A stretch of DNA of 64,000 nt from a virus. The notes beneath the pieces were generated by a model. The model had not been told where the DNA came from. It ran no database searches and saw nothing but the letters and a program-made list of their open reading frames with translations. Position 1 is the first letter of the stretch. Each line of letters starts with the position of its first letter. Shown in pieces: positions 5,416-26,613 of this stretch. The position numbers were made by a program, and so were the translations under genes. The stretch lies in the IMG/VR virus record IMGVR_UViG_3300030098_003955; one strand, written 5' to 3'.

Positions 5416-6244
5416 ACCGGCACAACTACATCTATTGCTTGAAAGCATCTATAAGAATTCGGGCAACCAGTTCAAGGTAAATGTAATCTATAGCTCGTCA
5501 ACGAACGAGATAGACTCAGGATATACATTACTTCAAGAAAGATTCTTTAACAAAAACCACAATTCGCTAAGGTCGCCAATATCTTGGACAGTTTCTAAAA
5601 ACACAAAAGAAAGCCTGCTAGAAGCGATTGATTCTAATCATGAGTTCTGCTGCTTCTTTGTTGACGACAATATTGTCTTTAACACACTCCCAACATACAA
5701 AGAAGTTTCAAAGCTGTTTTCTGACGACCAACTGTTTTCTATATCAACAAAGATAGGAAACAACACGGTAATACAAGATCCATATTCGTTTTATAGATCT
5801 GAATATTTTGTAGACATACCATCCTCTGGTGAGTTTTTGTTGGACAAATATTTAGTCTGGGATGCAACTCAAGTAAAACCATACACACTTTTCTCGCTAC
5901 CATTGTCTTTTGACGGTCATATATACAGAACTAAGACAATAAAGAAAATAATTGAAGAAGTTGACTTTGTTGATCCTTCGGGATTTGAAGAAAACTCACA
6001 GACAATGCTTTACAACTCTTCATTTTCATTTGCACCTCCTGTGAAGATGGCGTGCCCAGAATACAGCGCAGCAATAAAAAACACCATAGATAAAATTACA
6101 GACCATCCTCCAACTAACTTTGATTGCTTTGAAGATGGTATAAATTCCAGATATATAACCGGATATAAAATAGACTACAGCTACTACGATTTTGGCTCTA
6201 TATCTATGCCATACGAAAGATTCTTAACAAGGTTTGTTAAATGA
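5384..6244 (+). CDS. Putative GT-A glycosyltransferase-like protein
   Basis: SKNRPAQLHLLLES start, FFVDD motif; lies next to a sugar epimerase. Confidence 0.5.
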   Translation: MIQTFVLSKNRPAQLHLLLESIYKNSGNQFKVNVIYSSSTNEIDSGYTLLQERFFNKNHNSLRSPISWTVSKNTKESLLEAIDSNHEFCCFFVDDNIVFNTLPTYKEVSKLFSDDQLFSISTKIGNNTVIQDPYSFYRSEYFVDIPSSGEFLLDKYLVWDATQVKPYTLFSLPLSFDGHIYRTKTIKKIIEEVDFVDPSGFEENSQTMLYNSSFSFAPPVKMACPEYSAAIKNTIDKITDHPPTNFDCFEDGINSRYITGYKIDYSYYDFGSISMPYERFLTRFVK

Positions 6245-7182
6245 AGGTAGTTTGCACAACAGTTATAAGATCGGTAAGCCCTGAAGAAACTCATGGTGGC
6301 ATCTATATAGTTGATATGGATGATGGAAGGATACTTGAGTACAGACCATATCAAGGTGATATAAGAAACGACAATGAGAGAGGCGGCGAAAGAGGACTAA
6401 GAGGAATACAAGTTCTTGATGATAGTATCATAGTAGCTGATTCATCTGGACTAAGCAGATTTTCAAAAGACCTACAGCTTATAGAAAAGGTCACAAACAG
6501 AGATGTATTCCATTCAATACATGAGATATGTTTATTTGATGGAGACCTGTGGGTAACTTCTACAAGATATGACTCTATCGTTAGGGTTGGGCTAGACTTT
6601 TCTATAAAAGATTTTTATTCAATACAAGGTCATCCAATTAGTGATGGTAAAGTCCTTACTGGAAAGACGAGCATCGAGCATGGGACTGCCGACGACTCTG
6701 ATGAATATCATATAAACTCTATATCCGCAAACAATGGAAGATTAGTAATCAGCGGACTCACGACTGGGCTATACGACCTTTCAAATTTTGAGATGGTGGC
6801 CGATATGCCTTGGGTTCCTGTAGATCATAATGGGCAGAAGATGAGGACAAGGAGTTTTCTGCATAACTATTACGAGTACGAAGATATAAATGTGGTAAAC
6901 CTAACTCACTTTTCTTCTGTTATGATCTTTGATAAAAAAGAAAATTCTGCTGGATTTGCTCAACTACCCCCTGTTCAAAACATTAAGCATGACGATAATG
7001 ACAATATCGCAAAGGCGGGCTGGAACAGAGGCATGACAAGAAATGGCAATTTTCTTTTAGTGGGTAGTTCACCAGCCAGCATTTATGTGCTAGACTTGGG
7101 GTCTAAAACTTTTCATAAGCAGGTTTCTCTAGAGATGGATACAAGACACGCCATACACGGCTTAGAGATATTAGAAAAATAG
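6241..7182 (+). CDS. Beta-propeller protein (DUF4915/TIGR03032-like)
   Basis: GLRGI, YHINSI, GWNRGM, LLVGSS repeated blade motifs. Confidence 0.55.
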   Translation: MKVVCTTVIRSVSPEETHGGIYIVDMDDGRILEYRPYQGDIRNDNERGGERGLRGIQVLDDSIIVADSSGLSRFSKDLQLIEKVTNRDVFHSIHEICLFDGDLWVTSTRYDSIVRVGLDFSIKDFYSIQGHPISDGKVLTGKTSIEHGTADDSDEYHINSISANNGRLVISGLTTGLYDLSNFEMVADMPWVPVDHNGQKMRTRSFLHNYYEYEDINVVNLTHFSSVMIFDKKENSAGFAQLPPVQNIKHDDNDNIAKAGWNRGMTRNGNFLLVGSSPASIYVLDLGSKTFHKQVSLEMDTRHAIHGLEILEK

Positions 7183-7225
7183 CTCGGTCTTACCTATCCT
7201 AAAAAAATATACAGAGTAAATATGG

Positions 7226-7234
7226 GTGTATAAT
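7226..7234 (+). promoter_or_regulatory. Candidate promoter (GTGTATAAT) upstream of nrdA
   Basis: TATAAT hexamer in an intergenic gap; the GTGTATA core recurs upstream of the 46184 gene. Confidence 0.45.
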
Positions 7235-7257
7235 ATGGTGTCGGACAGTTTGAGCCT

Positions 7258-7380
7258 CTTTCAAAAAGCGGCTGGAGCGACACAAGTTCGACAAGCTACC
7301 ATGCACCAAGTGAAAAGTTTAACATCTTGTGTTTTGTAAATATATTACTTGGTTTTGAAGTGTCGCTCTTTTTTTGAAAG
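7258..7380 (+). ncRNA. Candidate structured 5' leader of nrdA
   Basis: Nested complementarity: CTTTCAAAAA/TTTTTGAAAG, GAGCGACAC/GTGTCGCTC, ACCAAGT/ACTTGGT. Confidence 0.5.
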
Positions 7381-7386
7381 TTAAGA

Positions 7387-9828
7387 ATGAGTTCAGATAT
7401 TAAAGTTAAGAAGAGAAATGGCAGGCTTGAAGATGTCAATCTCGACAAGATAAATAAGTGTGTTGAAAGAGCCTGCGAAGGGCTAGATTCTGTAAACCCA
7501 AGCGAAGTCGTGCTTGACGCAAGCCTTCAGCTATATAACAAGATAACAACGTCAGACATAGACAAAGCGCTGATTATGTCTGCTCGCTCAAAAATAGAGC
7601 AAGAGCCTAACTATAGCTACGTTGCCTCTAGACTTTTGCTCAACAGCCTCTACAAAGAAACATTCGGCAAGAGCGTTAACGGTGATTTCGATCCAGAGTA
7701 TAGAAGTCATTTCATTAAGACCATCAAGCATCTTGTAAAAACAGAGAAGCTTTCGGAAAGATTGCTTGAATACGATCTACAGCTTCTGGCCGACAAGCTT
7801 GTCCCAGAGCGAGACGATTTGTTTAAGTACCTTGGCATACAGACTCTTTACGATCGCTACTTCATTCATGAAGAAGGTAGAAGGATGGAGAACCCTCAAT
7901 CTTTCTACATGAGAGTTGCGATGGGTCTTTGCTTGGAAGAAGAGGACAAAGAAGAAAGAGCTGTTGAAATCTACAACATGATGTCTGAGTTTAGATACTC
8001 TCCATCTACTCCAACGCTTTTTAACAGTGGAACCATTCACTCACAGTTGTCGTCTTGCTATCTGAGTACTGTACATGACTCAATAGACGGTATCTTTGGG
8101 ACAATACACAACCAAGCAAGACTTTCTAAATACGCTGGCGGTCTTGGCGTGGACTGGACTCCAACACGATCTACAGGTTCTTATATTAAAGGAACTAATG
8201 GCCAGTCTTCAGGGCTTATACCTTGGCTTAAAATATTTAATGATACGCTTGTAGGTGTGAATCAAGGAGGTAAACGAAAAGGCGCAGGATGTGCCTACCT
8301 AGAAGTATGGCATCTCGATGTAGAAGACTTTCTAGACCTGAGAAAAAATACTGGAGATGATCGCAGGCGATGTCATGATATGAACACAGCCCTTTGGATT
8401 TGCGACGACTTCATGAAGGCCGCGCAGAAAGATAAAGATTGGTACTTATTTGACCCATCAGAGTTTCCACTACTGCACGAAACCTATGGAAACCAGTTTT
8501 CAAAAGAGTACAGAAAAGCCGTAAGGCTTGCTGAATCAGGGAGTGTTAAGAACTTTCGTGTAGTTTCTGCAAAAGACCTATGGAAAAAGATGCTCAAGTC
8601 GTTGTATGAAACAGGGCATCCTTGGGTAACTTTTAAAGATCCTTCCAACATCAGATACAGTAATAGGCATGAGGGCGTAGTTCATTCGTCAAACCTTTGT
8701 ACTGAGATATTGCTACACACCAAGCCTACAACTTATAAAGATGGCGAAGTCGAAGAAGTTGGAGAGACAGCGGTTTGCAACTTGGCTAGTATCAATCTAG
8801 AGAACCACGTTAAGGTTCGCTCGATTGACTGGAAAAAATTACAGCAAACAATAGAAGTAGCAGTCCGTGGTCTGGACAATGTTATTGACATAAATTTCTA
8901 CCCAACCAAAGAAGCCCAAAACTCAAACTTGAGAAACAGACCTGTTGGCCTCGGAGTAATGGGAACTCATGGCCTACTGCACAAACTCAAGATCAATTAC
9001 GATTCGCAAGAAGCAATTGATATGTGCAACAAAATTCAAGAGTTTGTTTCTTATCATGCAATATTAACCTCGTCCAAGCTAGCAAAGGAAAGAGGTCATT
9101 ATGAAAGCTATATGCACTCATCGTGGAGTTACAATAATCTGCCAATAGATACGTATTGTACACTCATGAACTCTAGAAAGAGTACTGACTCATATAAGCC
9201 AAAGGACTTCGAGACTCTTGAATGGGACAAGGTAAGAGACCATATAGCAGAGCATGGGATGAGAAATTCAAATGTGATGGCTATAGCTCCTACGGCTACC
9301 ATATCTTACATTCAGGGGTGCTCTCAATCTATTGAGCCAGACTATTCAGTGCTGTTCGTTTATTCGACCCTTAGCGGCGAGTTTACAATGATAAATGAGC
9401 ACTTTGTAGACATGGCTAAGAAGAAAGGCATTTGGTGCAAGGAACTTGTGGAAGCTCTTAAAGCCGCTGACGGAGATGTTATGGCTATAGACTTGCCAGA
9501 AGAAATACAGAACCAGTTCAAAACTGCGTTTGATGTCAGTGCGGAGGTGCTGATTGAAGCAGCTGCGGCTAGGCAGAGATGGATTGACATGGGACAATCT
9601 TTCAATCTTTACAACAAAGGTACTAGCCTTAAATATCTAAATGATATATACATGAAGTGTTATGAAGACGGTCTTAAGACTACCTACTACCTAAGAAGCA
9701 AGGCGGCAACTAGACTAGAAAAGTCTACAGTTAGCTCCACTAGTGAGGAGTCTCAAGAAGTGCCAGAAGACTTGAGTCAAGTTAAGGCTTGCTCTATTAA
9801 TGATCCAGATTGTGAGAGTTGTCAGTAA
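7387..9828 (+). CDS. nrdA: Ribonucleoside-diphosphate reductase alpha subunit with N-terminal ATP cone
   Basis: VKKRNG ATP cone, SPSTPTLFNSG, LSSCY, SNLCTE, VCNLAS, APTATIS, TTYYLR, C-terminal CESC. Confidence 0.97.
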   Translation: MSSDIKVKKRNGRLEDVNLDKINKCVERACEGLDSVNPSEVVLDASLQLYNKITTSDIDKALIMSARSKIEQEPNYSYVASRLLLNSLYKETFGKSVNGDFDPEYRSHFIKTIKHLVKTEKLSERLLEYDLQLLADKLVPERDDLFKYLGIQTLYDRYFIHEEGRRMENPQSFYMRVAMGLCLEEEDKEERAVEIYNMMSEFRYSPSTPTLFNSGTIHSQLSSCYLSTVHDSIDGIFGTIHNQARLSKYAGGLGVDWTPTRSTGSYIKGTNGQSSGLIPWLKIFNDTLVGVNQGGKRKGAGCAYLEVWHLDVEDFLDLRKNTGDDRRRCHDMNTALWICDDFMKAAQKDKDWYLFDPSEFPLLHETYGNQFSKEYRKAVRLAESGSVKNFRVVSAKDLWKKMLKSLYETGHPWVTFKDPSNIRYSNRHEGVVHSSNLCTEILLHTKPTTYKDGEVEEVGETAVCNLASINLENHVKVRSIDWKKLQQTIEVAVRGLDNVIDINFYPTKEAQNSNLRNRPVGLGVMGTHGLLHKLKINYDSQEAIDMCNKIQEFVSYHAILTSSKLAKERGHYESYMHSSWSYNNLPIDTYCTLMNSRKSTDSYKPKDFETLEWDKVRDHIAEHGMRNSNVMAIAPTATISYIQGCSQSIEPDYSVLFVYSTLSGEFTMINEHFVDMAKKKGIWCKELVEALKAADGDVMAIDLPEEIQNQFKTAFDVSAEVLIEAAAARQRWIDMGQSFNLYNKGTSLKYLNDIYMKCYEDGLKTTYYLRSKAATRLEKSTVSSTSEESQEVPEDLSQVKACSINDPDCESCQ

Positions 9829-12308: not shown

Positions 12309-12559
12309 TGCACTATGATCGTAGAACCATAACGTGTGCTGACTGCGGAAAGAATCTAATCACATTAGTTGAGTATGCTGATGGAGATACCCCTGACAGG
12401 TCTCACCTCATAGTGCTGTGTGACATTGAAGGAGAGGCTAGCTGGAAAGTTAACATCATTGGAAAACCTTTTTATGCACCATGCGATGGACTTAAAATAG
12501 CCTCCGTAGACTACGATGAAAAAGAAAAACTAACCACCATACAGATGGGAAAAGCATAA
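12308..12559 (+). CDS. Small Cys-containing hypothetical protein
   Basis: CADC plus two further Cys; TAATG-coupled. Confidence 0.6.
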   Translation: MHYDRRTITCADCGKNLITLVEYADGDTPDRSHLIVLCDIEGEASWKVNIIGKPFYAPCDGLKIASVDYDEKEKLTTIQMGKA

Positions 12560-12879
12560 TGGATGCGGATGAGTTTATCCAAGAGGACACTTATGAAAGC
12601 TTCTACTTTAATGCAAAAGGCGAGGTTGGCGAATCATTAGAAACTAAAACAGTGTGCTACAGGACTAACAATGTAGAGAAAGGAAGCTCTGCATTTTTTA
12701 TCAAAGTCTACAATGGTTCTTTGTTTGACCCATTTGGTATGGATGCAAACAAGATAAATGCAGAAGGAATAAAGTTTAAGAAGGTTAAATTAGAAGTCTT
12801 CAACTTGTATCACAAGTATTTAATAAGAAGAGTATCTGGAGATTTCTACAAAGCACAGAGAGTATTTAACAATGCCTAG
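12559..12879 (+). CDS. Hypothetical protein
   Basis: Coupled ORF in the operon. Confidence 0.65.
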   Translation: MDADEFIQEDTYESFYFNAKGEVGESLETKTVCYRTNNVEKGSSAFFIKVYNGSLFDPFGMDANKINAEGIKFKKVKLEVFNLYHKYLIRRVSGDFYKAQRVFNNA

Positions 12880-13195
12880 AAAAACAGGAAAACTGAGCAA
12901 AGTAGAAGAGTTCTATATTGCGAACAATACACATCTTGGTCTGAAGCAAATAGCTGAGGACTTGAACAGAACGCAAGAAGCCATCAAAAGCGTTTACCAT
13001 GACAACGCAGAAGAAGAGCCTCAGAAAAAAGAAAAGTCTGTTGGAGATATCACAGACAAGTTTGCAAGGCGAGAAGGTAGAGGCGTTACAATGATGACCC
13101 CAACAGCATCCGACGCTGCCGATAGCTCTAGAAAGAGTAGGCTTAATAAAGGCAATAGATATAGCGATTCAATTCATATCATCAAACCGGAGTAG
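12872..13195 (+). CDS. Hypothetical protein with N-terminal HTH-like segment
   Basis: LKQIAEDLNRTQEAIKS. Confidence 0.55.
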   Translation: MPRKTGKLSKVEEFYIANNTHLGLKQIAEDLNRTQEAIKSVYHDNAEEEPQKKEKSVGDITDKFARREGRGVTMMTPTASDAADSSRKSRLNKGNRYSDSIHIIKPE

Positions 13196-13659: not shown

Positions 13660-14074
13660 GATAAATGGAAAGCCATGCAATGCGGCTCAGTACATTGCAG
13701 AGATGGTATGTTTAAGAAAAGCTGAGAAAGAAAGAACTGGCCGACAAGGTGACGACTTTTGGAATACTCCAAAATGGAAGAAAGAGTTCCAAAGTCAGGT
13801 CACGAAAGCTTACGGCCTTCTAAAAAAATATAGCGACAAAGCTATAATTGCGGCATTGAATTCTTATGCTGGGAAGAGTATATTCTCTCTCAGGGTAAAG
13901 AGTCTCGACAAGCTTATTAAGAAAGAACAGTTCAAGCTAGATAAGCAGGCTGAAAAACCAGTGAAGCCCGTAGAGGTTGAAGACAATACGTCCTCAAAAC
14001 CAAGAAAGCCGTTTGGCAACAAGTCACAACTATCGCTACTAAGAGGTTTAGAAAATGGCAAAGAAGAAGACTAA
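13637..14074 (+). CDS. Basic hypothetical protein
   Basis: TTG start; overlaps both neighbours. Confidence 0.6.
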   Translation: MEKNYKHKINGKPCNAAQYIAEMVCLRKAEKERTGRQGDDFWNTPKWKKEFQSQVTKAYGLLKKYSDKAIIAALNSYAGKSIFSLRVKSLDKLIKKEQFKLDKQAEKPVKPVEVEDNTSSKPRKPFGNKSQLSLLRGLENGKEED

Positions 14075-15164
14075 AGCAGACATTGCATTTAGCAGCGAAG
14101 CTGTAGTAGGCGTGCTACAAAAGAAATACGGTAAAGACTATGGAAACATAGTTAAGTCAGGCAATGAGGTATTTGACGATCTCAAAGACCTTGCCTCGAT
14201 ACCAGTCAGCCCTTCTTTGGATCTGATCCTTGGCGGCGGCTTTAGAGAAGGTAGTTGGGTTCAACTAATCGGCGAGCCTAAGTGTGGAAAAACAACAACC
14301 GCACTACAATTTGCATCTAACGCACAGAAGGAAGAGCATGGAGGAAGACATATATACTACGTGGATGTTGAAGGCCGTATGAGCCTCAAAAACATCGAAG
14401 GTATTAATGGGCTTAACCTTGACAAGATTTCTAGAATAAGTGCAGAAAACGGCATTATGTGTGCCGAGGACTATCTTGATATCATCATACAACTAATCAA
14501 AGACCATCCTCAGTGCGTAATTATTCTAGACTCGGTATCTTCACTGATCGCAAGTCGCGACCTTGAAAAGAAGGTAGATGGAGCTTATAGGCCCGGACTT
14601 CCTAGAATACTTTCCGACTTTACTAAGAAGCTCACAACGATTGTTCCAAAGCAGAAAGTAACTGTGATATTAATCACTCACTATATTGCAGACCTTTCAA
14701 ATAGCCGAAGGACAAAGACTGCTGATGGCGGTATAAAAATCCAATATCAAGCAGACACTTCTATGGAAGTTAAGTACGTCCAAGGATGGGAAGAAAAGAG
14801 CAAGCAGATTGGGCAACTGATTCACTGGAACCTCAAGACCTCAGCTCTAGGTGGATTTCCCGGATCGTCCGCTGTTGGATATTTGAGATATGGATTTGGG
14901 TTGGATCACATTCAAGAGCTTTTCAACATGGCAAATGAAGTTGATTTGATATCAGCCGCTGGTGCTTGGTACACTTTTGAATACTTGTTCGATCATGTTG
15001 AAGAGATCAGAGCTTCGCTTGAAGAAAAGGGTTACGACTTATCCGATGATAAGATAAGCTCTACCCTCAAGTTTCAAGGAGCTGGAGCTTGTAGGGAGTT
15101 CATGGTTCAAAATCCAATCGTGGTTGACATACTAAGAAAAGAACTGACTTTCGATGAAAGTTAG
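14055..15164 (+). CDS. recA: RecA/UvsX recombinase
   Basis: SLDLILGGG, Walker A GEPKCGKTT, YVDVE, IILDSVSSL, GAWY. Confidence 0.93.
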   Translation: MAKKKTKADIAFSSEAVVGVLQKKYGKDYGNIVKSGNEVFDDLKDLASIPVSPSLDLILGGGFREGSWVQLIGEPKCGKTTTALQFASNAQKEEHGGRHIYYVDVEGRMSLKNIEGINGLNLDKISRISAENGIMCAEDYLDIIIQLIKDHPQCVIILDSVSSLIASRDLEKKVDGAYRPGLPRILSDFTKKLTTIVPKQKVTVILITHYIADLSNSRRTKTADGGIKIQYQADTSMEVKYVQGWEEKSKQIGQLIHWNLKTSALGGFPGSSAVGYLRYGFGLDHIQELFNMANEVDLISAAGAWYTFEYLFDHVEEIRASLEEKGYDLSDDKISSTLKFQGAGACREFMVQNPIVVDILRKELTFDES

Positions 15165-16521: not shown

Positions 16522-18009
16522 ATGGAAGAACAACAAAATTTAGCTTCAGAGAGAGCCGTACTTGCTGGCTTAATGCAGTACGGGGCAGATGCTTTTGACG
16601 AGATCGAAGAGATAGTCGGAAACGACTCATTTACACTTGAAGAAAATCAAGTAGTGTTTGCTTGTATTAAGAGATGCTTAAAGAACGATCAAGAGGTTGA
16701 TATAACTTCAATCTTGAGCGCTGGCGAAAGTCTTGGTTACTCAGAGTACCTGACTAGAAAAATACCAGAGAATCACTACAGGTCTCTCGCAAACTTGGAC
16801 ATTAGTATTAAGGCAACACAAGACCACGCCCTACTTCTGAGGAAGCTCTGCATCAGACGACGAGCTGTTAGGGATTTACTAAGAACGGTTGAGAGGCTAC
16901 AAAACTTAGATGACTCAACTTCAATAGACAACGTAATCTCGACCGCTGAAGAACCAATATTCACATTGTCGGACTCTTTGAATCAGGAGATGGACAACAA
17001 GCCAGTGCTTTTAGGAGAGGGCGTAAGAGAACACATGAAGAATGTATTCGACAATCCATGTAAACAAATCGGCATCAGTAGTGGCTTTCCAAGATACGAC
17101 AAAGCAATCGGCGGAGGCTTCAGAAGAAAATGCGTAGATGTCATAGGCGCTAGGCCAAAGACTGGTAAAAGCATGTTTGCAGACGCTGTAGCAATACACG
17201 CAGCCGTCGAACTAGACATCCCAGTCCTAATACTCGACACAGAAATGTCTGAACAAGACCACTGGCACAGGATACTTGCTAGATTTAGTGGCTATGACAT
17301 AAACGACATCGCTACTGGCAATGCCGCCGAACAAGCTGGCGGCAGAGAAAGTGTACTCAAGGCAATAGATAAATTTGAGAAATCCAAAATACACTACAAA
17401 AGTGTGGCTGGCAGACCCTTCGATGAGACCCTTTCTATTATAAGAAGATGGGTCAAGAAAGAAGTTGGTTCTGATGAAAATGGAAATACTAATGACTGTC
17501 TTGTAATTTACGACTACTTGAAGATAATGAGTGCTTCTGAAACTGCTGATAGGCAGGAGTATGAGGTACTTGGCCAGCAGATGATTGACTTGCACAATCT
17601 AGCAAAGAATAATGACTTTGCTTGTCTTACGTTTGTTCAACTGAATAGAGATGGGATAAGCAGGGAATCTACGGATGCTGTAGCTGGCTCCGATAGAATT
17701 ATTTGGAACTGTACTAGCTTCTCAATATTCAAGCTGAAATCTGATGAAGAGATAGCTGAAGACAAAGGTGAAAGCGGTAATCGGAAATTAATTCCAATTG
17801 TTGTTAGGCACGGAGCAGGACTCGAAAACATAGGTGATTATATTAACCTAAAGATGAAGGGTTCTACTGCCGAAATTGAAGAAACAGGCACCAAGGTCGA
17901 GCTCCAAGAGCTTGGTAGGTTTAAGAAAGAGGGTTTTGACAATGAGGTTCCAGACAAACAAGAGTTTAGACTCGATGAATCAGAAGCAGAAGAAGACCCG
18001 TTCGCCTAA
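16522..18009 (+). CDS. dnaB: Replicative DNA helicase
   Basis: ERAVLAGL, GISSGF, GARPKTGKS, DTEMS, YDYLK, QLNR. Confidence 0.95.
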   Translation: MEEQQNLASERAVLAGLMQYGADAFDEIEEIVGNDSFTLEENQVVFACIKRCLKNDQEVDITSILSAGESLGYSEYLTRKIPENHYRSLANLDISIKATQDHALLLRKLCIRRRAVRDLLRTVERLQNLDDSTSIDNVISTAEEPIFTLSDSLNQEMDNKPVLLGEGVREHMKNVFDNPCKQIGISSGFPRYDKAIGGGFRRKCVDVIGARPKTGKSMFADAVAIHAAVELDIPVLILDTEMSEQDHWHRILARFSGYDINDIATGNAAEQAGGRESVLKAIDKFEKSKIHYKSVAGRPFDETLSIIRRWVKKEVGSDENGNTNDCLVIYDYLKIMSASETADRQEYEVLGQQMIDLHNLAKNNDFACLTFVQLNRDGISRESTDAVAGSDRIIWNCTSFSIFKLKSDEEIAEDKGESGNRKLIPIVVRHGAGLENIGDYINLKMKGSTAEIEETGTKVELQELGRFKKEGFDNEVPDKQEFRLDESEAEEDPFA

Positions 18010-19054
18010 TTTTCTCAGTCAAGAAGAGCTCGCAGAACTTTGCATCTTAATTGCTGGCAAGATGAGGGAGTTGCTAGACCACTTTGAGCTTGAGTACGAA
18101 GACTTGGGCGACATGATAAGAATGGTATGTCCAATCCATGAAGGCGCTGATAACCCTCATGGATGCACCATCCGCTTGAATCCTGAGAAGGAATTCTATG
18201 GCTGTTGGAAATGCTGGACTAACCAATGCGAGAAAGAGTTCTTTACGACACCAATTGGATTTATTAGAGCTTTATTGTCACGAGACAGAGAAGAGAACGC
18301 AACATTTAAAGAGGCGGTTACCTTCGCTCTTAAGTTCACAAATCCAAAGTCCTTGGATAATGATTTTGACTTTGTTGAAAGAAACTTCCAAAGGATAATA
18401 AACGCAGTAAATAGTAAACCTGAGAAGAAGACCTCTGGCATAAGCAGGCAGGACGTTAGGAAAGCATTAGTGATGCCTCCTCAGTACTACATAAAAAGAG
18501 GTTACTCAAAAGAAGTATTAGACAAGTTTGATATAGGGCTGTCTATTAAAGAAGGCTCCCCAATGAAAAACAGAGTCGTCGTACCTGTGTACGATGATGA
18601 CCATGAGTTTGTGGTAGCCCACCTTGGAAGACAAACCACAGAACAAGACAATGGGTACAAGTGGATAAACTCCAAAAACTTTAAGAAGTCAAACTACCTA
18701 TATGGATATTGGTTTGCAAAAGACAAGATCAGAGAGCTGCGCAGTGTCATACTTGTCGAAGGTCAGGGTGATGTATGGAGACTCCATGAGTCAGGAATAG
18801 AGAATGTAGTCGGAATGTTTGGAGCTAGTCTGAGCGATGCTCAATCTAGAATTATCGAGACATCTGGAGCATTTAATGTTATCATACTAACAGACAACGA
18901 CAATGCTGGAGAAAAGGCTAAGCAGACAATCAGAGAGAGGTTGGGTAGAATCTGCAAAATAATCGAGCCGCAGATACCAGCAAAAGACGTAGGCGAAATG
19001 ACCGTCGAAGAGATAAAACAAATGATCGTGCCCCAAATACAGAAGTGGATCTAA
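17942..19054 (+). CDS. dnaG: DNA primase (Zn finger + TOPRIM); start uncertain (17942 or 17975)
   Basis: CPIH...CWTNQC, RVVVP, YKWINS, VEGQGD, TDNDNAG, KDVGE. Confidence 0.92.
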   Translation: MRFQTNKSLDSMNQKQKKTRSPNFLSQEELAELCILIAGKMRELLDHFELEYEDLGDMIRMVCPIHEGADNPHGCTIRLNPEKEFYGCWKCWTNQCEKEFFTTPIGFIRALLSRDREENATFKEAVTFALKFTNPKSLDNDFDFVERNFQRIINAVNSKPEKKTSGISRQDVRKALVMPPQYYIKRGYSKEVLDKFDIGLSIKEGSPMKNRVVVPVYDDDHEFVVAHLGRQTTEQDNGYKWINSKNFKKSNYLYGYWFAKDKIRELRSVILVEGQGDVWRLHESGIENVVGMFGASLSDAQSRIIETSGAFNVIILTDNDNAGEKAKQTIRERLGRICKIIEPQIPAKDVGEMTVEEIKQMIVPQIQKWI

Positions 19055-19055
19055 C

Positions 19056-19841
19056 ATGAAGATAATAGGAATATCTGGAGCAAAGCAGGCTGGCAAAAAT
19101 ACATGTGCCAACTTTCTACATGGTTATCAACTGAGATATTACGAAGTTATTAGTAAATTCATGATGAACGAGTCTGGAGATTTACTAGTGAATACCACAA
19201 CCCTAGACGAGAATGGTCAGGAAAAGGAAGGGGTTGGCAAGCTTGAAATTGAAAGAATGGATGAAGAGTTCGCCGCCTTTGCGTCTCGATCTATATGGCC
19301 TTTTGTTAGGCTCTTCAGTTTCGCTGATGCTCTTAAATTTTTAGCCGTAGAAATATTTGGATTAGAACCAGAGCAATGCTATGGCACCAACGAAGAAAAG
19401 GACACGCCGACTAAACTGCTTTGGGAGAACATGCCCGGCTATACAGGCTCTGCAACTGGCCCAATGACAGGTAGGGAGTTCTTGCAATACTTTGGAACCG
19501 ATATATGCAGAAAAATGTATGACAACATTTGGATTGATAGCTGCATCAAAAGAATAGCCTCATCAAACACAGAGCTTGCAATCATAGCCGATGTTAGATT
19601 TCCTAACGAAGTCAAGGCCATACAAGAGGCAGGCGGAAAAGTCATCAGACTTACGAGACGGGCATTCTCTGAAGATCAACACTCTAGTGAAAGCGCTCTT
19701 TCAGATTATGAAGGTTTCGACGCTGTAATTGACAACTCAGAATCAACTATTGACGAAACAAATAGAGCCATACTCAAACAGCTACTTGATTGGGGATGGT
19801 TGCAATCAAAGACATCAGACTTCAGGATCAAAAATGACTAA
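19056..19841 (+). CDS. Deoxynucleoside monophosphate kinase
   Basis: IGISGAKQAGK, SFADALK, REFLQYFGT, IADVRFPNE, HSSE. Confidence 0.9.
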   Translation: MKIIGISGAKQAGKNTCANFLHGYQLRYYEVISKFMMNESGDLLVNTTTLDENGQEKEGVGKLEIERMDEEFAAFASRSIWPFVRLFSFADALKFLAVEIFGLEPEQCYGTNEEKDTPTKLLWENMPGYTGSATGPMTGREFLQYFGTDICRKMYDNIWIDSCIKRIASSNTELAIIADVRFPNEVKAIQEAGGKVIRLTRRAFSEDQHSSESALSDYEGFDAVIDNSESTIDETNRAILKQLLDWGWLQSKTSDFRIKND

Positions 19842-20421
19842 TATCTTAGAGATACCGTTTGACCAACAGATGGTACGGAGAGCTTACGAGAAGTCTCTCG
19901 CCTTGGGATCAATCAACAACTCCATACTTAATGGCAAAGGAAACACGGCTGGATACCTTGGCGAAGAGGCTGTAGCTGCCTACATACAGGCGGTCATCAT
20001 GAGTAGCGACGAGGGCAGCGACAAGTACAACCATGACTTGATTGTTGACAATCACAAGTACAAAAAAATAGAAGTCAAAACAAAACGCAGAAAATATGAC
20101 CCAAGGCCGGACTGGCAAGTGTCAATTGCCAAGACCAGCAAGCACCAAAATCCTGACCTTTACATCTTTACAAGCATTACCTTTGGAAGGCATATAGGAG
20201 AAGGAAGAGACAGAATTTATTACGAACCTAAATCCATATGGATCACTGGACAAATGCAACCAAAAGAATATTTTGCTAAAGCTCGTCTGTGTCAAAAAGG
20301 CAAACCAGACCCTGACAGGCGAGGCAGGACTAATGACTTTGAGACCCATGTGGAAATGTACAATATGAACATAGAAGATTTGGAACCACTAGATGTTAGT
20401 TTGTTACCACAGAAGCAGTAG
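19834..20421 (+). CDS. PD-(D/E)xK restriction-endonuclease-like protein
   Basis: GYLGEE...HDLIV...IEVKTK; ATG at 19834. Confidence 0.55.
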   Translation: MTNILEIPFDQQMVRRAYEKSLALGSINNSILNGKGNTAGYLGEEAVAAYIQAVIMSSDEGSDKYNHDLIVDNHKYKKIEVKTKRRKYDPRPDWQVSIAKTSKHQNPDLYIFTSITFGRHIGEGRDRIYYEPKSIWITGQMQPKEYFAKARLCQKGKPDPDRRGRTNDFETHVEMYNMNIEDLEPLDVSLLPQKQ

Positions 20422-21418
20422 CTTAGGCACGCTGGAATTTTGCCAGCAGAAATACTTTCTTCAATACAACCTGTCCTTCAAGGACAAGACAAATAAGAAG
20501 GCCTTGATGGGTACTATCACTCACAAGGTAATGCAAACTCTGGGCGATAAGAAGGTCGCCATGAACAAAGGTCTTGACATCGTTGATGACGACGAGACCG
20601 GAAGGCAGTTGACGCTGGCAGAGTGCGATGACATAAAGCTTTTGAATGACATTGCGTTTGACTACTACACTAGTGCGTTCCCCGAAGTGAATATTACCGA
20701 AGCTGATAGGAGGACTTGCTTAAGATGGGCGGAGAAAGCTCTTGCGTACAATCACGGAGACCTAGACCCAAGAAATCAAGACGTATATGCAACCGAGCTT
20801 TTCTTTGACATTGAGATCAAGAAACCTTGGGCAAAATACAAATATGAAGTTGGTGATGAAGTCCTTGAGGGTTATCTTTCAATAAAAGGGACTGTTGACC
20901 TCATCGTTACTAGGGGTGAAAACTACTTTGAAATTCTAGATTACAAGACGGGCAAGAGACTTAATTGGGCAACTGGAGAAGAAAAAACTATCGAGTGCCT
21001 TGAAAAAGATACTCAACTTCTCTTATACTATTACGCACTCAGAAGTATGTATCCTGACTATGAGTTTTTTGTCAGCATCTACTACATAAATGACGGAGGC
21101 TTATTCTCCATGTGTTTTGACGATGACGATTTTCAAAAGGCAGAAGACATACTGAGGAAAAAGTTTGAGCAGATAAAGTCTTGTCAGTATCCAAGACTTT
21201 TGTCAAACCAGAACTCGCACTGGAAGTGCCAGAAGCTTTGTAAGTTTAGCGAACCTTCTGAGCAAGATCCAAACAGAAGTGTGTGTCAGTTCATTAGAGA
21301 TGAGATTAGAACCAAAGGCATTACGGAAGTAGTGCAGGAATATGGAAATGTTTCCAAAATTGCCAAATACGGCGACGGCGGAGGCAGACTTGCAGAGGAC
21401 GAAGAAGACAAGAAATGA
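20393..21418 (+). CDS. Cas4/AddB-like PD-(D/E)xK exonuclease with Fe-S cysteines
   Basis: FCQQKY, GTITH, GTVDL, DYKTG, QLLLY, C-terminal CQKLC...C. Confidence 0.85.
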   Translation: MLVCYHRSSSLGTLEFCQQKYFLQYNLSFKDKTNKKALMGTITHKVMQTLGDKKVAMNKGLDIVDDDETGRQLTLAECDDIKLLNDIAFDYYTSAFPEVNITEADRRTCLRWAEKALAYNHGDLDPRNQDVYATELFFDIEIKKPWAKYKYEVGDEVLEGYLSIKGTVDLIVTRGENYFEILDYKTGKRLNWATGEEKTIECLEKDTQLLLYYYALRSMYPDYEFFVSIYYINDGGLFSMCFDDDDFQKAEDILRKKFEQIKSCQYPRLLSNQNSHWKCQKLCKFSEPSEQDPNRSVCQFIRDEIRTKGITEVVQEYGNVSKIAKYGDGGGRLAEDEEDKK

Positions 21419-23316
21419 GTTGGACTCCACTCCATTTACACACGCACTATAGTTTACTAGATGGACTCAGCAAGCCAGAACAAGTGGCTGATAGATGTGA
21501 GAAGTTGGGTTACACATCTTGCGCTATTACAGATCATGGAAACATATCTGGAGCTGTGGCTTTTGTTCAGGCGATGAAAAAGAAAAACATCAAGCCAATA
21601 TTAGGTTGTGAGTTTTATCTTTGTAAACAGTCCCCTTCAGTGCAGACTGCTGAAAATAGAGACCTAAGCCATTTGTGTGTTATTTCTAAAAACAAAACCG
21701 GATGGGACAACCTAGTTAAAGCAGTCTCTCGCAGCAATGACGAAGATTGTTTCTACTACAAGCCAAGGCTTGATTTAGACACACTTGCTAATTATTCGGA
21801 AGGACTGATTGCATTCAGCGGACATCCCAATAGCGATATAGCTAATGCGATGTTCTCTGATCCAAAAGCTGCTTACTCAGCAGAAACAGAAGAGGCTGTT
21901 AAGTCTTATATTGCTGATGACTGGAATGAAAAAGTGATGGAGAAAGTGCGTCAGTACCAATCCATCTTTGGTGAAGAAAACTTCTTCATTGAAATACAAG
22001 CAATCGACCAAGAAAACTCTGCGGCGGTCAGGATGATTGTCAAAGGTTTAAGGTGGTTGTGCAAAAAATACAAACTACATTCGATAGCAACAGCAGACTC
22101 TCACTACCCAGAGAAGCAAGACTCTATTGACCATACGCTATTGCTATGCTCTTTGATGAACACCACGATGAAGAAGTTGAAGAAGAAGATAGAGGAAAAC
22201 CAAGATGTGTCTTTTGGATGTTTTCTAAGATCGAACAACTTTCACATACCGTCACTAGAAGAAATCAAAGAAGTAAATCTAGAGCATGAAATACAAAACG
22301 CCAAGCTCATAGCTGACATGTGTGAAGAATACGACATACTCGATCAGCCAAAACTTCCTAAGTTTGAATGTCCTGACGGACTTTCTGAAATTGAATACCT
22401 AAGACAACTGTGTCGTGAAGGATGGGCAAACATACTGATAAAGCAAGGCAAGGTAGGTACGGAAGAAGCTATAGAAGAGTATAGGGCTAGGATTGAAAAA
22501 GAACTAAAGGTCATTAATGATGCAGATCTGGCTGGATACTTTTTGATAGTCAGGGATATTGTCAATTATGTTAACAACCTCGGCTTGCTTGCTGGGCCGG
22601 GCAGAGGATCTGCGGCTGGATGCTTAGTCTCGTACCTAGTTGGTATAACTTTAGTCGACCCGATCGAGCATGGGCTCATCTTCGAGAGGTTCTATAACTC
22701 TGGTAGAAACACAGCAGATCACGTATCCTTGCCAGATATAGATATTGATGTCCCTGCACTTAGTAGAGATGATGTTATTGATTATATTAAATCGAAGTAC
22801 GGCAAAGACAACGTTAGCCAGATGATCACATATATATGCCTTCAAGGAAGAAGTGCGCTTAGCGAAGTTCTACGCCTGCATGAGGCGTGCTCTTACGACG
22901 AGATAAAGAAGATAACAAGTTGTCTTCCACAGGAAAGCCAAATATCAGACCAGCTTGCTGAGATGGATAATCCGTCGCTAATCACTTGGGCGCTGATGAA
23001 TCAGCCTGACGAACTGTATGACTATTGCAGGATAGACGAGGACGGGAACTTGTCTGGAGATCACTCTAAGTTTTTTGAGCAGGCGATAAGAATTGAGGGA
23101 ACGTTCAAGTCTCAAGGGAAGCACGCAGCTGGAGTCGTGATATCCTCCCAAAATTTGAACCACGTTTGCCCAATGCTGTCTGACAAGAAATCTTCCGAGA
23201 AGATAGCTGGAATGGAAATGAATGACTTAGAAGCTATGGGGCATGTTAAATTCGACATACTAGGAATATCGCTATTAGATAAGGTTATGGGCGTGACTCA
23301 TGAACAAAACTCATAA
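21415..23316 (+). CDS. dnaE: DNA polymerase III alpha, N-terminal part (PHP + palm/thumb)
   Basis: HLHTHYSLLDG, ITDHG, GPGRGSAAG, FERF, PDIDID, HAAGVV, KFDILG, then stop. Confidence 0.95.
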   Translation: MSWTPLHLHTHYSLLDGLSKPEQVADRCEKLGYTSCAITDHGNISGAVAFVQAMKKKNIKPILGCEFYLCKQSPSVQTAENRDLSHLCVISKNKTGWDNLVKAVSRSNDEDCFYYKPRLDLDTLANYSEGLIAFSGHPNSDIANAMFSDPKAAYSAETEEAVKSYIADDWNEKVMEKVRQYQSIFGEENFFIEIQAIDQENSAAVRMIVKGLRWLCKKYKLHSIATADSHYPEKQDSIDHTLLLCSLMNTTMKKLKKKIEENQDVSFGCFLRSNNFHIPSLEEIKEVNLEHEIQNAKLIADMCEEYDILDQPKLPKFECPDGLSEIEYLRQLCREGWANILIKQGKVGTEEAIEEYRARIEKELKVINDADLAGYFLIVRDIVNYVNNLGLLAGPGRGSAAGCLVSYLVGITLVDPIEHGLIFERFYNSGRNTADHVSLPDIDIDVPALSRDDVIDYIKSKYGKDNVSQMITYICLQGRSALSEVLRLHEACSYDEIKKITSCLPQESQISDQLAEMDNPSLITWALMNQPDELYDYCRIDEDGNLSGDHSKFFEQAIRIEGTFKSQGKHAAGVVISSQNLNHVCPMLSDKKSSEKIAGMEMNDLEAMGHVKFDILGISLLDKVMGVTHEQNS

Positions 23317-23545
23317 AGAAAAAATCATAGAGAGGCTTGAAACTAGAGGCTTTTCAGAGTACAAAAGAAAGTTGTCCCTGTGTGACTTGAGTAAATGCAA
23401 CATTCAAGGGATGGTTAATCGCACTGGCTTTCAAGTGTGGTATGAAAACGGCGCAAAAATAGAAACAAACATTTTTTATAATTTGGAAGAAGCGCTAGAT
23501 GCCTTCTTCAAAACCAAGAAGAAAGTTGACAGATCGTATGAATAG
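23300..23545 (+). CDS. Hypothetical protein between the dnaE halves
   Basis: 81 aa ORF overlapping both neighbours. Confidence 0.6.
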   Translation: MNKTHKEKIIERLETRGFSEYKRKLSLCDLSKCNIQGMVNRTGFQVWYENGAKIETNIFYNLEEALDAFFKTKKKVDRSYE

Positions 23546-24221
23546 AAAAGACATAATTGTTTTTGACTTTGAAACAGGGTCAAGAGACCCACATAAAACG
23601 CAAGCTATTCAGATTGCGGCAGTGGCGATTCACGGCAGGAACTTGACCGTACAGCCTGACGGTTATTTTGAGAGCCTGATTAGGCCAGAATTAGATGACG
23701 ATAAGGCAATTGAGATGGGTGTAGACCCAATAGAAGATGGAGCCTTAGCCGTCAATAAAAAGACCAGAGAGGAGCTAAAAGACGCTCCCTTGCCAAAGGT
23801 TGTATGGGAGAAGTTTACTGAGTTCGTAAACAGATACAACTGGAAAGGCACACCGTACTATGCGCCTATCGCTGCGGGCTACAACATCAACGGGTTTGAT
23901 ATGCCGATTGTTGAAAGACTATGCCAACAATACGGGCCTATAAACAAGAAAACTGGCAAGCAATGCTTATTTGACAAGATTCATAGGTTAGACCTCATGG
24001 ATACTGTTTGGATGTGGATGGAAAATAATCCCGATGTCAATAGGATCGGTATGGACTCTATGCGAGAACTCATGGGTATGGACACAACCAATGCTCATGA
24101 CGCATTGCAGGATGTCAAAGACACCGCTAATATGATGATTGGATTTATGAAGTTGCACAGACGCTTCGCTCCTCAGATCCGTTTTGAAAAGGCATTTGCT
24201 GATGGAAAAACACACCTCTAA
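23538..24221 (+). CDS. DEDDh 3'-5' exonuclease (DnaQ/epsilon-like)
   Basis: VFDFETG, AGYNINGFD, AHDALQD. Confidence 0.9.
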   Translation: MNRKDIIVFDFETGSRDPHKTQAIQIAAVAIHGRNLTVQPDGYFESLIRPELDDDKAIEMGVDPIEDGALAVNKKTREELKDAPLPKVVWEKFTEFVNRYNWKGTPYYAPIAAGYNINGFDMPIVERLCQQYGPINKKTGKQCLFDKIHRLDLMDTVWMWMENNPDVNRIGMDSMRELMGMDTTNAHDALQDVKDTANMMIGFMKLHRRFAPQIRFEKAFADGKTHL

Positions 24222-25803
24222 TAACTCAAATATCGACATAAGAAACGTAGGTTTCAATGACAAAGATACTTGGGACTTGATTTGCTCTGGGCAAACCAAA
24301 GGTGTGTTTCAGCTTGAAAGCAGTCTTGGTAGATCTTGGGCAAAAAAAGTAAAACCAAGAAATCTAGAAGAGCTATCTGCACTTCTTTCGATCATTAGGC
24401 CGGGAACTCTTAAGGCGATTGTCGATGGTAAGTCGATGACGCAGCACTATGTCGATAGAAAAGACGGCGATGAAGAGATAGAGTACCTCCATGAATCACT
24501 AGAGCCAATCTTGAAGTCGACTCAGGGCGTGCTTGTATATCAAGAGCAATCAATGCAGATAGCCCAAAAACTAGCTGGCTTCTCTCTTGAGGAAGCGGAC
24601 AACTTGAGAAAGGCGATCGGCAAGAAAAAGGCATCTCTCATGGCGGAAGTTAAAAAAGACTTCATCAAGGGAGCCAAGAAGGTAGGTATCATAAAAAAGG
24701 ATGTGGCTGAGGAGATATTTAGCTGGATCGAAAAGTCTAGCCGTTATGCCTTCAACAAGTCTCATGCTGTTAGTTATGCAATATGCGGTTACTGGAGTGC
24801 GTATTGCAAGGCTCATTTTCCTAAAAAATTCTACGCAAGCTGGCTGTCTCACGCTCATGCCAAGCCAAACCCTCAAGAAGAGGTTAGAGAGCTTATAAGT
24901 GACGCTAGACTCTCTGACATATATGTATTTCCGCCGTCCTTGAACTTTATCAAGCCTCACACCAGCCTTTGCGACGATAAGATCAGGTTTGGATTCTTGG
25001 ACGTTAAGTCTGTCGGCAAAAGTCATCTAGATAAAATACGCGATGTAGTCGATTTTTCTAACAGCTACACCAATAAAAACGTAGAAGAACTAAATTGGTT
25101 TCAAGCCTTGTGTTTGGTACTAGGAAGGCTTCCACAAAGGCCTGTCACTGCAATGATACATGCGGGAGTCTTTATGTTCACAGGCATAGCAAGAAACAAA
25201 ATGCTTGCAGACCTGTCTGTTTTTAATGCGCTGACCAATAAAGAGAAAGAGTGGGCGCAAGAGAGGTGGGAACAACATGAAAGCCTAGAATCTTTACTAG
25301 AAGCCTTATGGCCTACCAAGAAGCAAGGCGGTGGCACGTCTACTAAGAAGAGATCTGAGTTTGTGAAGAGCCAGTTAGACTCAATCAAGAACCCAATGAT
25401 GAGCATGGAAGACGACCCTATTATGATAATACGTCATGAAGAGGAGTATCTTGGTACGTCTATAAGCTATTCAAAGGTTCGTTCCTCAGAAAACTACTCA
25501 ATCGCCAACACCTCTTGCAAGGACATAGTAAATGGCAAAAAGGGCAATGTGACCCTAGCCGTTAACCTTTCTGAGATCAGAAAGTACACATCAAAGAAGG
25601 GAAAGAACGTAGGAAGGGACATGGCTTTCCTAAAAGTCGAGGATTCTTCTGGCACTATTGATAATGTTGTTGTTTTTCATGACGCTTATGAGGAACATAA
25701 ACATATAATGTATGAAGGCAACAACCTCTTGCTAGTTGGCAAAGTTGATACAAACAACAAACAAGACTCGGTAGTCGTTGACAGCGTGAAGGAGCTAGAT
25801 TAG
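24202..25803 (+). CDS. dnaE: DNA polymerase III alpha, C-terminal part (fingers, HhH, OB)
   Basis: GVFQLES, IIRPG, VYQEQ, LRKAIGKK, YAFNKSHA, IRFGF, MAFLKVED. Confidence 0.95.
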   Translation: MEKHTSNNSNIDIRNVGFNDKDTWDLICSGQTKGVFQLESSLGRSWAKKVKPRNLEELSALLSIIRPGTLKAIVDGKSMTQHYVDRKDGDEEIEYLHESLEPILKSTQGVLVYQEQSMQIAQKLAGFSLEEADNLRKAIGKKKASLMAEVKKDFIKGAKKVGIIKKDVAEEIFSWIEKSSRYAFNKSHAVSYAICGYWSAYCKAHFPKKFYASWLSHAHAKPNPQEEVRELISDARLSDIYVFPPSLNFIKPHTSLCDDKIRFGFLDVKSVGKSHLDKIRDVVDFSNSYTNKNVEELNWFQALCLVLGRLPQRPVTAMIHAGVFMFTGIARNKMLADLSVFNALTNKEKEWAQERWEQHESLESLLEALWPTKKQGGGTSTKKRSEFVKSQLDSIKNPMMSMEDDPIMIIRHEEEYLGTSISYSKVRSSENYSIANTSCKDIVNGKKGNVTLAVNLSEIRKYTSKKGKNVGRDMAFLKVEDSSGTIDNVVVFHDAYEEHKHIMYEGNNLLLVGKVDTNNKQDSVVVDSVKELD

Positions 25804-26162
25804 TGCAGACTATTTCAAACTATTGCAGATTTATCGGAAGGCTGACTTCAGACCCAAAGATGATTGACTTCGATTCTGGAGCTAGGCTGACGACTTTTAG
25901 ACTGGCTATAACTGAACACAGGAAAGTAAAAGACGGAGATACTCAGGAGTTCGTTAATTTCTTTGATTTTGAGGCTTGGGACACTGGCGGTGAAGTCATT
26001 TTCTCAAAGTGTAAGAAGGGTGATAAAATCGAAGTTGTAGCTTGTGCTAGGAACAACAACTGGAGCAGTAAGAAGACTGGTAAAATGCACCAAACGACAA
26101 GATTCAGAGTTAATGAATTTGAAATACTGAGCAACAAAAAGAAAGTTCATGAAGTCGCTTAG
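25803..26162 (+). CDS. ssb: Single-stranded DNA-binding protein
   Basis: IGRLTSDP, FRLAI, FFDFEAW, KKGDKI; lacks an acidic tail. Confidence 0.85.
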   Translation: MQTISNYCRFIGRLTSDPKMIDFDSGARLTTFRLAITEHRKVKDGDTQEFVNFFDFEAWDTGGEVIFSKCKKGDKIEVVACARNNNWSSKKTGKMHQTTRFRVNEFEILSNKKKVHEVA

Positions 26163-26613
26163 CGAAGATGAAATCATTAAGGAGAATTATGGACTTGTTG
26201 TAGCCGAAGCAATGAGCTTCTTGTCCGACCCGTCAGAAAGCATTGATGACTTTATACAAGTTGGACTCATTGGGCTGTTGTATGCAGTGAGAAACCATGA
26301 CGAAAAAAAGTCCAAGTTCTCAAAGTTTGCTAGGATCTGCATTAGAAATCACATTGCTAGGCTTACGAAAAAACCAAGAACAGAACACCTTGACACAGAT
26401 CTTCTAGACAACAATCCACTGTCTTTTTCAGAGTACATACCTGACTCGTTATCAGACATACAAAAGCTTGTTTTAGAAATGAAACGACAAGGATATACTT
26501 ACTTTGAAATTTCCGAACTATTGCTTGGGAGCCATTACGAATCCCTCAACAAACCTGAAGTAAAAAAGTTCGTCAAGGAAATAATTGAGATACTAAGAGA
26601 CTCCAACAAATGA
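26149..26613 (+). CDS. Phage sigma-70-family factor (regions 2 and 4)
   Basis: DDFIQVGLIGLLYAV...FSKFA..CIRN; GYTYFEISELL. Confidence 0.8.
   Translation: MKSLSEDEIIKENYGLVVAEAMSFLSDPSESIDDFIQVGLIGLLYAVRNHDEKKSKFSKFARICIRNHIARLTKKPRTEHLDTDLLDNNPLSFSEYIPDSLSDIQKLVLEMKRQGYTYFEISELLLGSHYESLNKPEVKKFVKEIIEILRDSNK

Follow-up and report, generated by a model that had tools for sequence, protein, structure and literature searches.

The dnaE Locus

The DNA considered here is a 64,000-nucleotide stretch of viral sequence (IMG/VR record IMGVR_UViG_3300030098_003955; called the window below), in which dnaE, the gene for the alpha subunit of DNA polymerase III (Pol III), is encoded as two proteins. Textbooks present Pol III alpha as a single-chain bacterial replicase, and to our knowledge the well-known natural splits of it are only those that inteins rejoin. 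Four overlapping open reading frames (ORFs) on the + strand fill positions 21415-25803. The first, dnaE-N (21415..23316, 633 residues), specifies the PHP, palm, and thumb of Pol III alpha, including the catalytic aspartates D441, D443, and D614. It is followed by an ORF of 81 residues, s81 (23300..23545), by the gene for a DnaQ/epsilon-like DEDDh 3'-5' exonuclease (23499..24221, 240 residues), and by dnaE-C (24184..25803, 539 residues from the TTG at 24184), which specifies the fingers and, further on, putative helix-hairpin-helix (HhH)/beta-binding and OB regions. The polypeptide that is continuous in single-chain DnaE is interrupted here by a stop codon at 23314-23316, and the C-half ORF opens 0.87 kb downstream.

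A sequence-only reading of the window, made without database searches, had described this arrangement, and its account of the ORFs was borne out when they were read again: the first stops 16 residues past the KFDILG motif, the second piece of dnaE resumes at ..NIDIRNVGFNDKDTWDLI..GVFQLES, and s81 and the exonuclease gene lie in between, with all four ORFs overlapping. The overlaps are 17 nt between the N-half and s81, 47 nt between s81 and the exonuclease (8 nt if the exonuclease starts at ATG 23538), and 38 nt between the exonuclease and the C-half (20 nt if the C-half starts at ATG 24202). These alternative starts are most likely the true ones. Relatives of the exonuclease align only from residue 12-14 of the 240-residue ORF onward, and a protein of 227 residues from ATG 23538 would overlap the s81 stop codon as ATGAATAG; a C-half of 533 residues from ATG 24202 would have AAGG upstream. 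A promoter and terminator scan of the locus gave nothing above shuffled expectation, with no terminator-like site above chance between the genes. The overlap of start and stop codons and the lack of a terminator signal between genes are consistent with a single mRNA and translational coupling, and the pieces are probably made from one message in coupled amounts.

Domain Content of the Two Halves and of the Exonuclease

Pfam recognizes a PHP domain at residues 6-195 of the N-half (PF02811, 150.8 bits) and the complete palm/thumb module (PF07733, positions 1-260/260), and in the C-half the fingers (PF17657, positions 13-165/166, 172.8 bits). Against phrog_405, a full-length phage DnaE profile of 1190 positions, the N-half covers 42-607 and the C-half 622-1067. 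The three aspartates, D441, D443, and D614, are aligned to the palm of the Thermus aquaticus (Taq) and Escherichia coli enzymes and are invariant in 26 orthologues, as is the GPGRGSAAG motif among the N-half orthologues; in the C-half the finger motifs RPG, YQEQ, LRKAIGKK, and RYxFNKSH are invariant in the orthologue alignment. The exonuclease matches RNase_T (PF00929) with 49.4 bits against a cut-off of 24, and also phrog_192, "DNA polymerase exonuclease subunit." It carries the ExoI DxE, ExoII D, and ExoIII Hx4D motifs of DnaQ/epsilon-type DEDDh enzymes, and its D10, E12, D121, H187, and D192 (numbered from Met14) are invariant in 24 orthologues.

The Break Lies in a Variable Loop between Palm and Fingers

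In alignments to solved structures, residue 621 of the N-half corresponds to E. coli alpha 562 (Taq 625) and residue 14 of the C-half to E. coli alpha 581 (Taq 640). The break therefore falls in a variable loop at approximately residues 563-580 of E. coli alpha, where ~18 E. coli residues are replaced by a 12-residue tail on the N-half and a 13-residue head on the C-half; the junction alignment likewise has a loop of variable length at this point, short in single-chain relatives. We take this stretch to be the palm/fingers junction, directly after the strand that bears the third catalytic aspartate in the E. coli structure (Lamers et al. 2006). Because the Pfam and PHROG coverage is contiguous across the two proteins and the structure alignments leave a gap only between N621/562 and C14/581, no more than a loop is lost, and the claim of the sequence-only reading that little or nothing is missing stands now that both halves have been aligned to the E. 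coli and Taq subunits.

Conservation and Selection

The source of the window is an uncultured marine phage, probably of ~200 kb. Its nearest record (G001), a 100-kb IMG/VR contig with a CheckV completeness of 50%, is 99% identical to the window. A scan of IMG/VR yielded 80 related loci at 42-68% identity. The C-half is present with the same synteny in 54/54 of those that extend at least 4.7 kb beyond the N-half, and the related loci without it are all cut by contig ends. In 45 distinct split loci, spanning the same range of identity, the N-half ends in the same loop. The sequence-only reading had raised the question of misassembly; as the same split occurs in every related contig long enough to contain it, among dozens of independent metagenome contigs, misassembly is excluded.

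The split is also the prevailing form in a wider search. A HMMER search over 1.84 billion protein cluster representatives (50%-identity clusters) was evaluated for its best 150 matches, 140 of which are N-halves that end at the split point, with 6/150 running on into the fingers domain. Members of the family stem from marine metagenomes of Tara Oceans, JGI, and ENA, and no cultured phage name is attached to the matches. With megablast the region had no match among 50,697 phage records, and the relatives that tblastn returned from phage records reached at most 34% identity; the two nearest that were checked, L082 and L083, have a fused gene.

Both halves and the exonuclease are under purifying selection. 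Values of dN/dS, computed wherever dS could be estimated and rough as dS is near saturation, are 0.03-0.05 (N-half), 0.015-0.07 (exonuclease), and 0.05-0.09 (C-half). The locus thus consists of two same-strand genes that together make up one protein and that are both retained under selection, as in intein-free split phage genes. Its surroundings are syntenic as well, the order across the clade being DnaB - DnaG primase - dNMP kinase - PD-(D/E)XK nuclease - [N - (small ORF) - exo - C] - SSB - (sigma) - glycosyltransferase. Of the two intervening genes to which the sequence-only reading drew attention, the exonuclease gene belongs to this conserved core; s81, found only in the nearest subclade, does not.

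Search for a Rejoining Device

No Hint or intein family was matched by any of the four proteins in Pfam, and no intron family was found in 21000-26300 in Rfam. Nor do the ends at the break carry the elements of a split-intein dnaE, namely a Hint N-part and a Hint C-part ending in HN before a Cys, Ser, or Thr. The non-homologous ends amount to ~12 residues in the tail of the N-half and 13 in the head of the C-half, whereas the parts of split inteins measure 88-105 and 33-54 residues (Dassa 2009, PMC2677866), so that there is no room for them. A free-standing homing endonuclease is likewise absent between the halves of the window, where the gap consists of s81, which has no endonuclease signature, and the DEDDh exonuclease. 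Among relatives the gap is coding throughout and ranges from 664 to 2229 nt, with genes that vary in number and identity. The reading frames of the N- and C-halves are the same in the window and differ among relatives. Given the missing Hint and intron elements, the short ends, a conserved coding gap of varying content, and frames that differ between relatives, neither splicing nor bypassing is credible.

Pfam does detect inteins at other sites, and the DnaE gene family of these phages is an intein hot spot. Two relatives have a contiguous HNH-endonuclease intein in the fingers of the C-half near RPG, at about C residue 75 (L063:9624-11975 and L077:8500-10866). In another (L074:9515-12340) a split intein interrupts the C-half as well: past FNK the first piece closes with a Hint N-part, the next gene encodes a 305-residue NUMOD3/DUF559 (Vsr-like) endonuclease, and the second piece has a head of ~39 residues. 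This relative has a three-piece dnaE, with an intein-free break and a "fractured gene" break at one locus. In-frame inserts of ~120-400 residues, the size of inteins, are present in 19 of the 140 split-ending N-half representatives, at about residue 64 (PHP), at about residue 400 (near GPGRGSAAG), or at both (P0063). The four inserts that were checked (P0021, P0007, P0063, and P0054) contain Hint/intein domains in Pfam, two of them with LAGLIDADG. Because Pfam finds Hint domains at these other sites, the negative result at the break is meaningful, and the absence of an intein signature that the sequence-only reading had noted from the ends of the halves now has positive controls in relatives.

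Fused Relatives and the Order of Events

A few lineages with the same synteny have a fused, single-chain dnaE. In L055/56/58 and L086 it is immediately preceded by the exonuclease gene. In L085, a 112-kb contig, the fused gene occupies 5001-8402 and the exonuclease gene 12316-12984, some 4 kb downstream, after the genes for SSB and a glycosyltransferase. The same genes are arranged here in a third way. An ORF of 239 residues upstream of the fused gene in that contig was considered as the exonuclease and rejected in favor of the downstream one. More distant phages are single-chain as well, namely L082 and L083, two contigs from the human gut, along with Brevibacillus phage Sundance (L084). That fused and split forms occupy one and the same slot in phages of one kind is good evidence for an equivalent role of the two-chain form.

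In a concatenated maximum-likelihood tree the fused L055 group is nested inside split lineages, and a single split clade is not rejected by the approximately unbiased (AU) test (p = 0.217). A wider FastTree of the N-region, for which local supports only are available, divides the fused forms of the in-group between two clusters and requires three or more state changes.

A Probable Two-chain Replicase and Its Alternatives

Taken together, these data point to a replicative polymerase of family C (DnaE type) that would consist of two non-covalently associated polypeptides, co-expressed with a proofreader, and we give this reading a probability of about 0.85. The N-half would supply the PHP domain, the palm with its three catalytic aspartates, and the thumb, and the C-half the fingers with their contacts to dNTP and template, the HhH/clamp-binding region, and the OB fold. 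An alpha-N/alpha-C heterodimer would rebuild the palm-fingers interface of single-chain DnaE. Docking through this normal interface is to be expected because the chain is cut in a variable loop on the surface, immediately past the palm strand of the third aspartate. To judge from the structures of E. coli and Taq alpha, neither half should polymerize alone, since the carboxylates are in the N-half and the finger motifs in the C-half. The epsilon-like exonuclease would work with the heterodimer as its proofreader. The sequence-only reading had called the enzyme a natural non-covalent heterodimer that is co-translated with its exonuclease; the comparative evidence argues for the heterodimer, but "co-translated" can be taken only in the sense of translational coupling within an operon.

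Several points weigh against this interpretation. The association of the halves is deduced here from the genes. The HHH_6 and OB matches of the C-half score 21.6 and 19.8 bits, under the Pfam cut-offs of 25.6 and 27, respectively, although they stand in the expected order and relatives show them too. Neither a processivity clamp nor a clamp loader was identified in the window, which bears on the composition of the holoenzyme. Finally, the history of the locus may have been a single split or repeated fission with re-fusion.

Three other explanations have to be set against the two-chain enzyme. The halves could act separately, the N-half as a PHP nuclease or nucleotidyltransferase and the C-half as a DNA- or clamp-binding adaptor, with no joint polymerase. 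Stand-alone pieces of a minimal Pol III do exist as products of distant genes (Iyer et al. 2021, PMC7824862), and in one representative, P0116, the N-half is fused to a YpsA/SLOG domain instead. We nevertheless regard separate action as unlikely: the halves always occur together, in a fixed order and in one operon, and add up to exactly one DnaE; the catalytic aspartates and the finger motifs are divided between them and are all invariant; and fused orthologues fill the same syntenic slot. Still less probable is that the halves are rejoined at the RNA or protein level, whether through trans-splicing, a cryptic intron, an atypical mini-intein, or translational bypassing. Split inteins do rejoin cyanobacterial and metagenomic "fractured" dnaE genes (PMC2677866), inteins abound at other sites of the gene family, and the two halves of the window happen to share a reading frame. 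That frame is not shared in all relatives, however, no Hint domain or Rfam intron is present and no space for the former, and what would have to be removed is a set of overlapping, conserved protein genes under purifying selection that differ in number and identity between relatives. Known bypasses, moreover, span tens of bases (PMC2677866) as opposed to a gap of 0.7-2.2 kb.

The least probable of the three is that the gene is broken or decaying, or an artefact of assembly, and that replication of the phage falls to the host polymerase. An intact single-chain gene does occur in relatives, yet dN/dS is 0.03-0.09, and down to 42% identity the ORFs are intact, with invariant catalytic motifs; many samples have yielded the architecture, in dozens of independent contigs. 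The conservation data have in effect already refuted both decay and artefact, either of which would have overturned the sequence-only reading.

Beyond the two-chain enzyme itself, we raise with considerable reserve a rather doubtful idea, namely that fission at the palm/fingers loop is reversible in evolution and that the loop is a protected "cargo slot." Lineages would then have switched back and forth between one chain and two, as at least two fused clusters among the split forms suggest, and genes lying between the two essential halves, the proofreader and the various gap genes of relatives described below, would be held co-expressed and resistant to deletion. In a stronger form of this idea, assembly of the halves may depend on, or be ordered by, the exonuclease made between them.

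Relation to Known Polymerases

The two-chain enzyme has the same PHP-palm-thumb-fingers series, with putative HhH and OB regions after it, as single-chain Pol III alpha of E. coli (2HNH/5FKU), T. aquaticus (2HPI/3E0D), and Mycobacterium tuberculosis (5LEW/7PU7), and shares with it the Asp triad, the finger motifs, and an accompanying DnaQ-like exonuclease; it differs in having two chains and an exonuclease gene nested between their two genes. PolC of Firmicutes likewise has a DEDDh exonuclease embedded in the polymerase coding region, but there it is an in-frame domain inside the PHP of one chain and not a separate gene between two.

Cyanobacterial dnaE-n/dnaE-c, with a naturally split intein, and metagenomic "fractured" dnaE, with split inteins and a free-standing homing endonuclease, are also encoded in pieces (Dassa et al. 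2009, PMC2677866), and one relative of the window has the fractured arrangement at FNK|S in the C-half (L074). The palm/fingers break of the window is at another site, without intein halves and with a partner gene in the gap rather than a homing endonuclease. The product would have to remain two separate chains. Intein-free splits are represented by the gp43A/gp43B family-B polymerase of T4-related Aeromonas phages and by NrdA of Aeh1, split by mobE (both cited in PMC2677866), by split family-A polymerases of marine cyanophages and OM43 phages, and by a split chimallivirus polymerase. These too concern an essential replication enzyme from two adjacent genes of an operon, with non-covalent assembly presumed or shown. 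In comparison with gp43A/B, NrdA, and the family-A enzymes, the window polymerase is of family C and has the gene of a proofreader in the gap, with no homing endonuclease; and whereas the known splits are sporadic, that of DnaE is an ancient one and the prevailing form of a very large clade.

A second case of a phage Pol III alpha-type catalytic module made as two proteins without inteins is the minimal core of group 2.2 T4-like jumbo phages, which is split into distant genes (Iyer et al. 2021, PMC7824862). That core lacks the PHP domain, full fingers, and the OB domain, has its cut within the nucleotidyltransferase module, and occurs alongside a family-B replicase. The window, in contrast, has what is probably the full domain set, a cut between palm and fingers, and genes 0.87 kb apart in one operon, and no other polymerase gene was seen with its DnaB/DnaG/SSB module. 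PF07733 has been reported as a marker of a large cluster of marine jumbo phages, with the split unmentioned (Weinheimer and Aylward 2022, PMC9123017). Full-text searches, whose coverage leaves out much of the subscription literature, brought up no description of an intein-free palm/fingers split of DnaE with a nested exonuclease.

If the two-chain reading is correct, an abundant and ancient lineage of ocean phages has a replicase cut beside its active site, and the palm-fingers connection would be dispensable. Nature would thereby offer a design for two-piece family-C polymerases, and the fused and split orthologues in the same synteny would form a clean system for the study of gene fission and fusion and of polymerase-proofreader stoichiometry in an operon. 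Annotation is affected as well: the genes are now labeled "DNA polymerase-3 subunit alpha" or "hypothetical protein," with their status as half-enzymes unmarked.

Genes of the Gap and of the Surrounding Region

The s81 family is confined to the nearest subclade (64-68% identity), other subclades having a different small ORF or none. Its dN/dS is 0.04-0.19, and the protein is predicted to adopt a small alpha-beta4-alpha fold (pLDDT, the per-residue confidence of the model, 80). It belongs to no Pfam family, a scan of all 23 homologues giving only scattered matches with E >= 0.02, and Foldseek against the PDB returned nothing at E <= 0.001; rows resembling PUR-alpha and PC4 (E > 0.4, TM score 0.4-0.5) are too weak to be used. 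Two proposals for s81, a remnant of an AP2-like homing endonuclease and an analogue of the theta subunit, found no support from Pfam or Foldseek and were dropped. A complex prediction of the N-half and the exonuclease with s81 as a partner scored 0.01, which is uninformative on binding either way.

Elsewhere in the clade the gap holds a variety of genes: a TylF-like methyltransferase (L004:8780-9550 and L013:8649-9425), a uracil-DNA glycosylase (L047:8597-9391), a non-specific nuclease of the Endonuclease_NS family (L063:8787-9533, L064:8596-9716, and L068:8598-9299), a SET-domain protein (in the L064 gap, 8596-9716), and a YpsA/SLOG protein directly after the N-half (L074, 7808-8311). The last of these domains, a separate gene in that locus, is the one found in P0116 (762 residues) as a C-terminal fusion to an N-half with no end at the split. 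In several deeper subclades (L045, L048, L059, and L071) the C-halves have an extra N-terminal head with a conserved CGC motif (KYECGC and KFNCGCC, for instance), which the window is without.

Upstream of dnaE-N, a replication module on the + strand (16522..21418) comprises genes that Pfam assigns to a DnaB helicase, a DnaG-type primase, a dNMP kinase, and a PD-(D/E)XK nuclease, together with one ORF without assignment, and is syntenic in all relatives. Directly downstream, adjoining dnaE-C at 25803..26613 (+ strand), Pfam and synteny place SSB and a small sigma-70-type factor. A gene for a RecA/UvsX-like recombinase lies at 14055-15164, upstream of the helicase-primase genes, and its synteny is kept in relatives. 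At the far side of the window, on the - strand at 46716-59012, a single ORF of 4098 residues, probably structural, stands beside ORFs of 683 and 931 residues.

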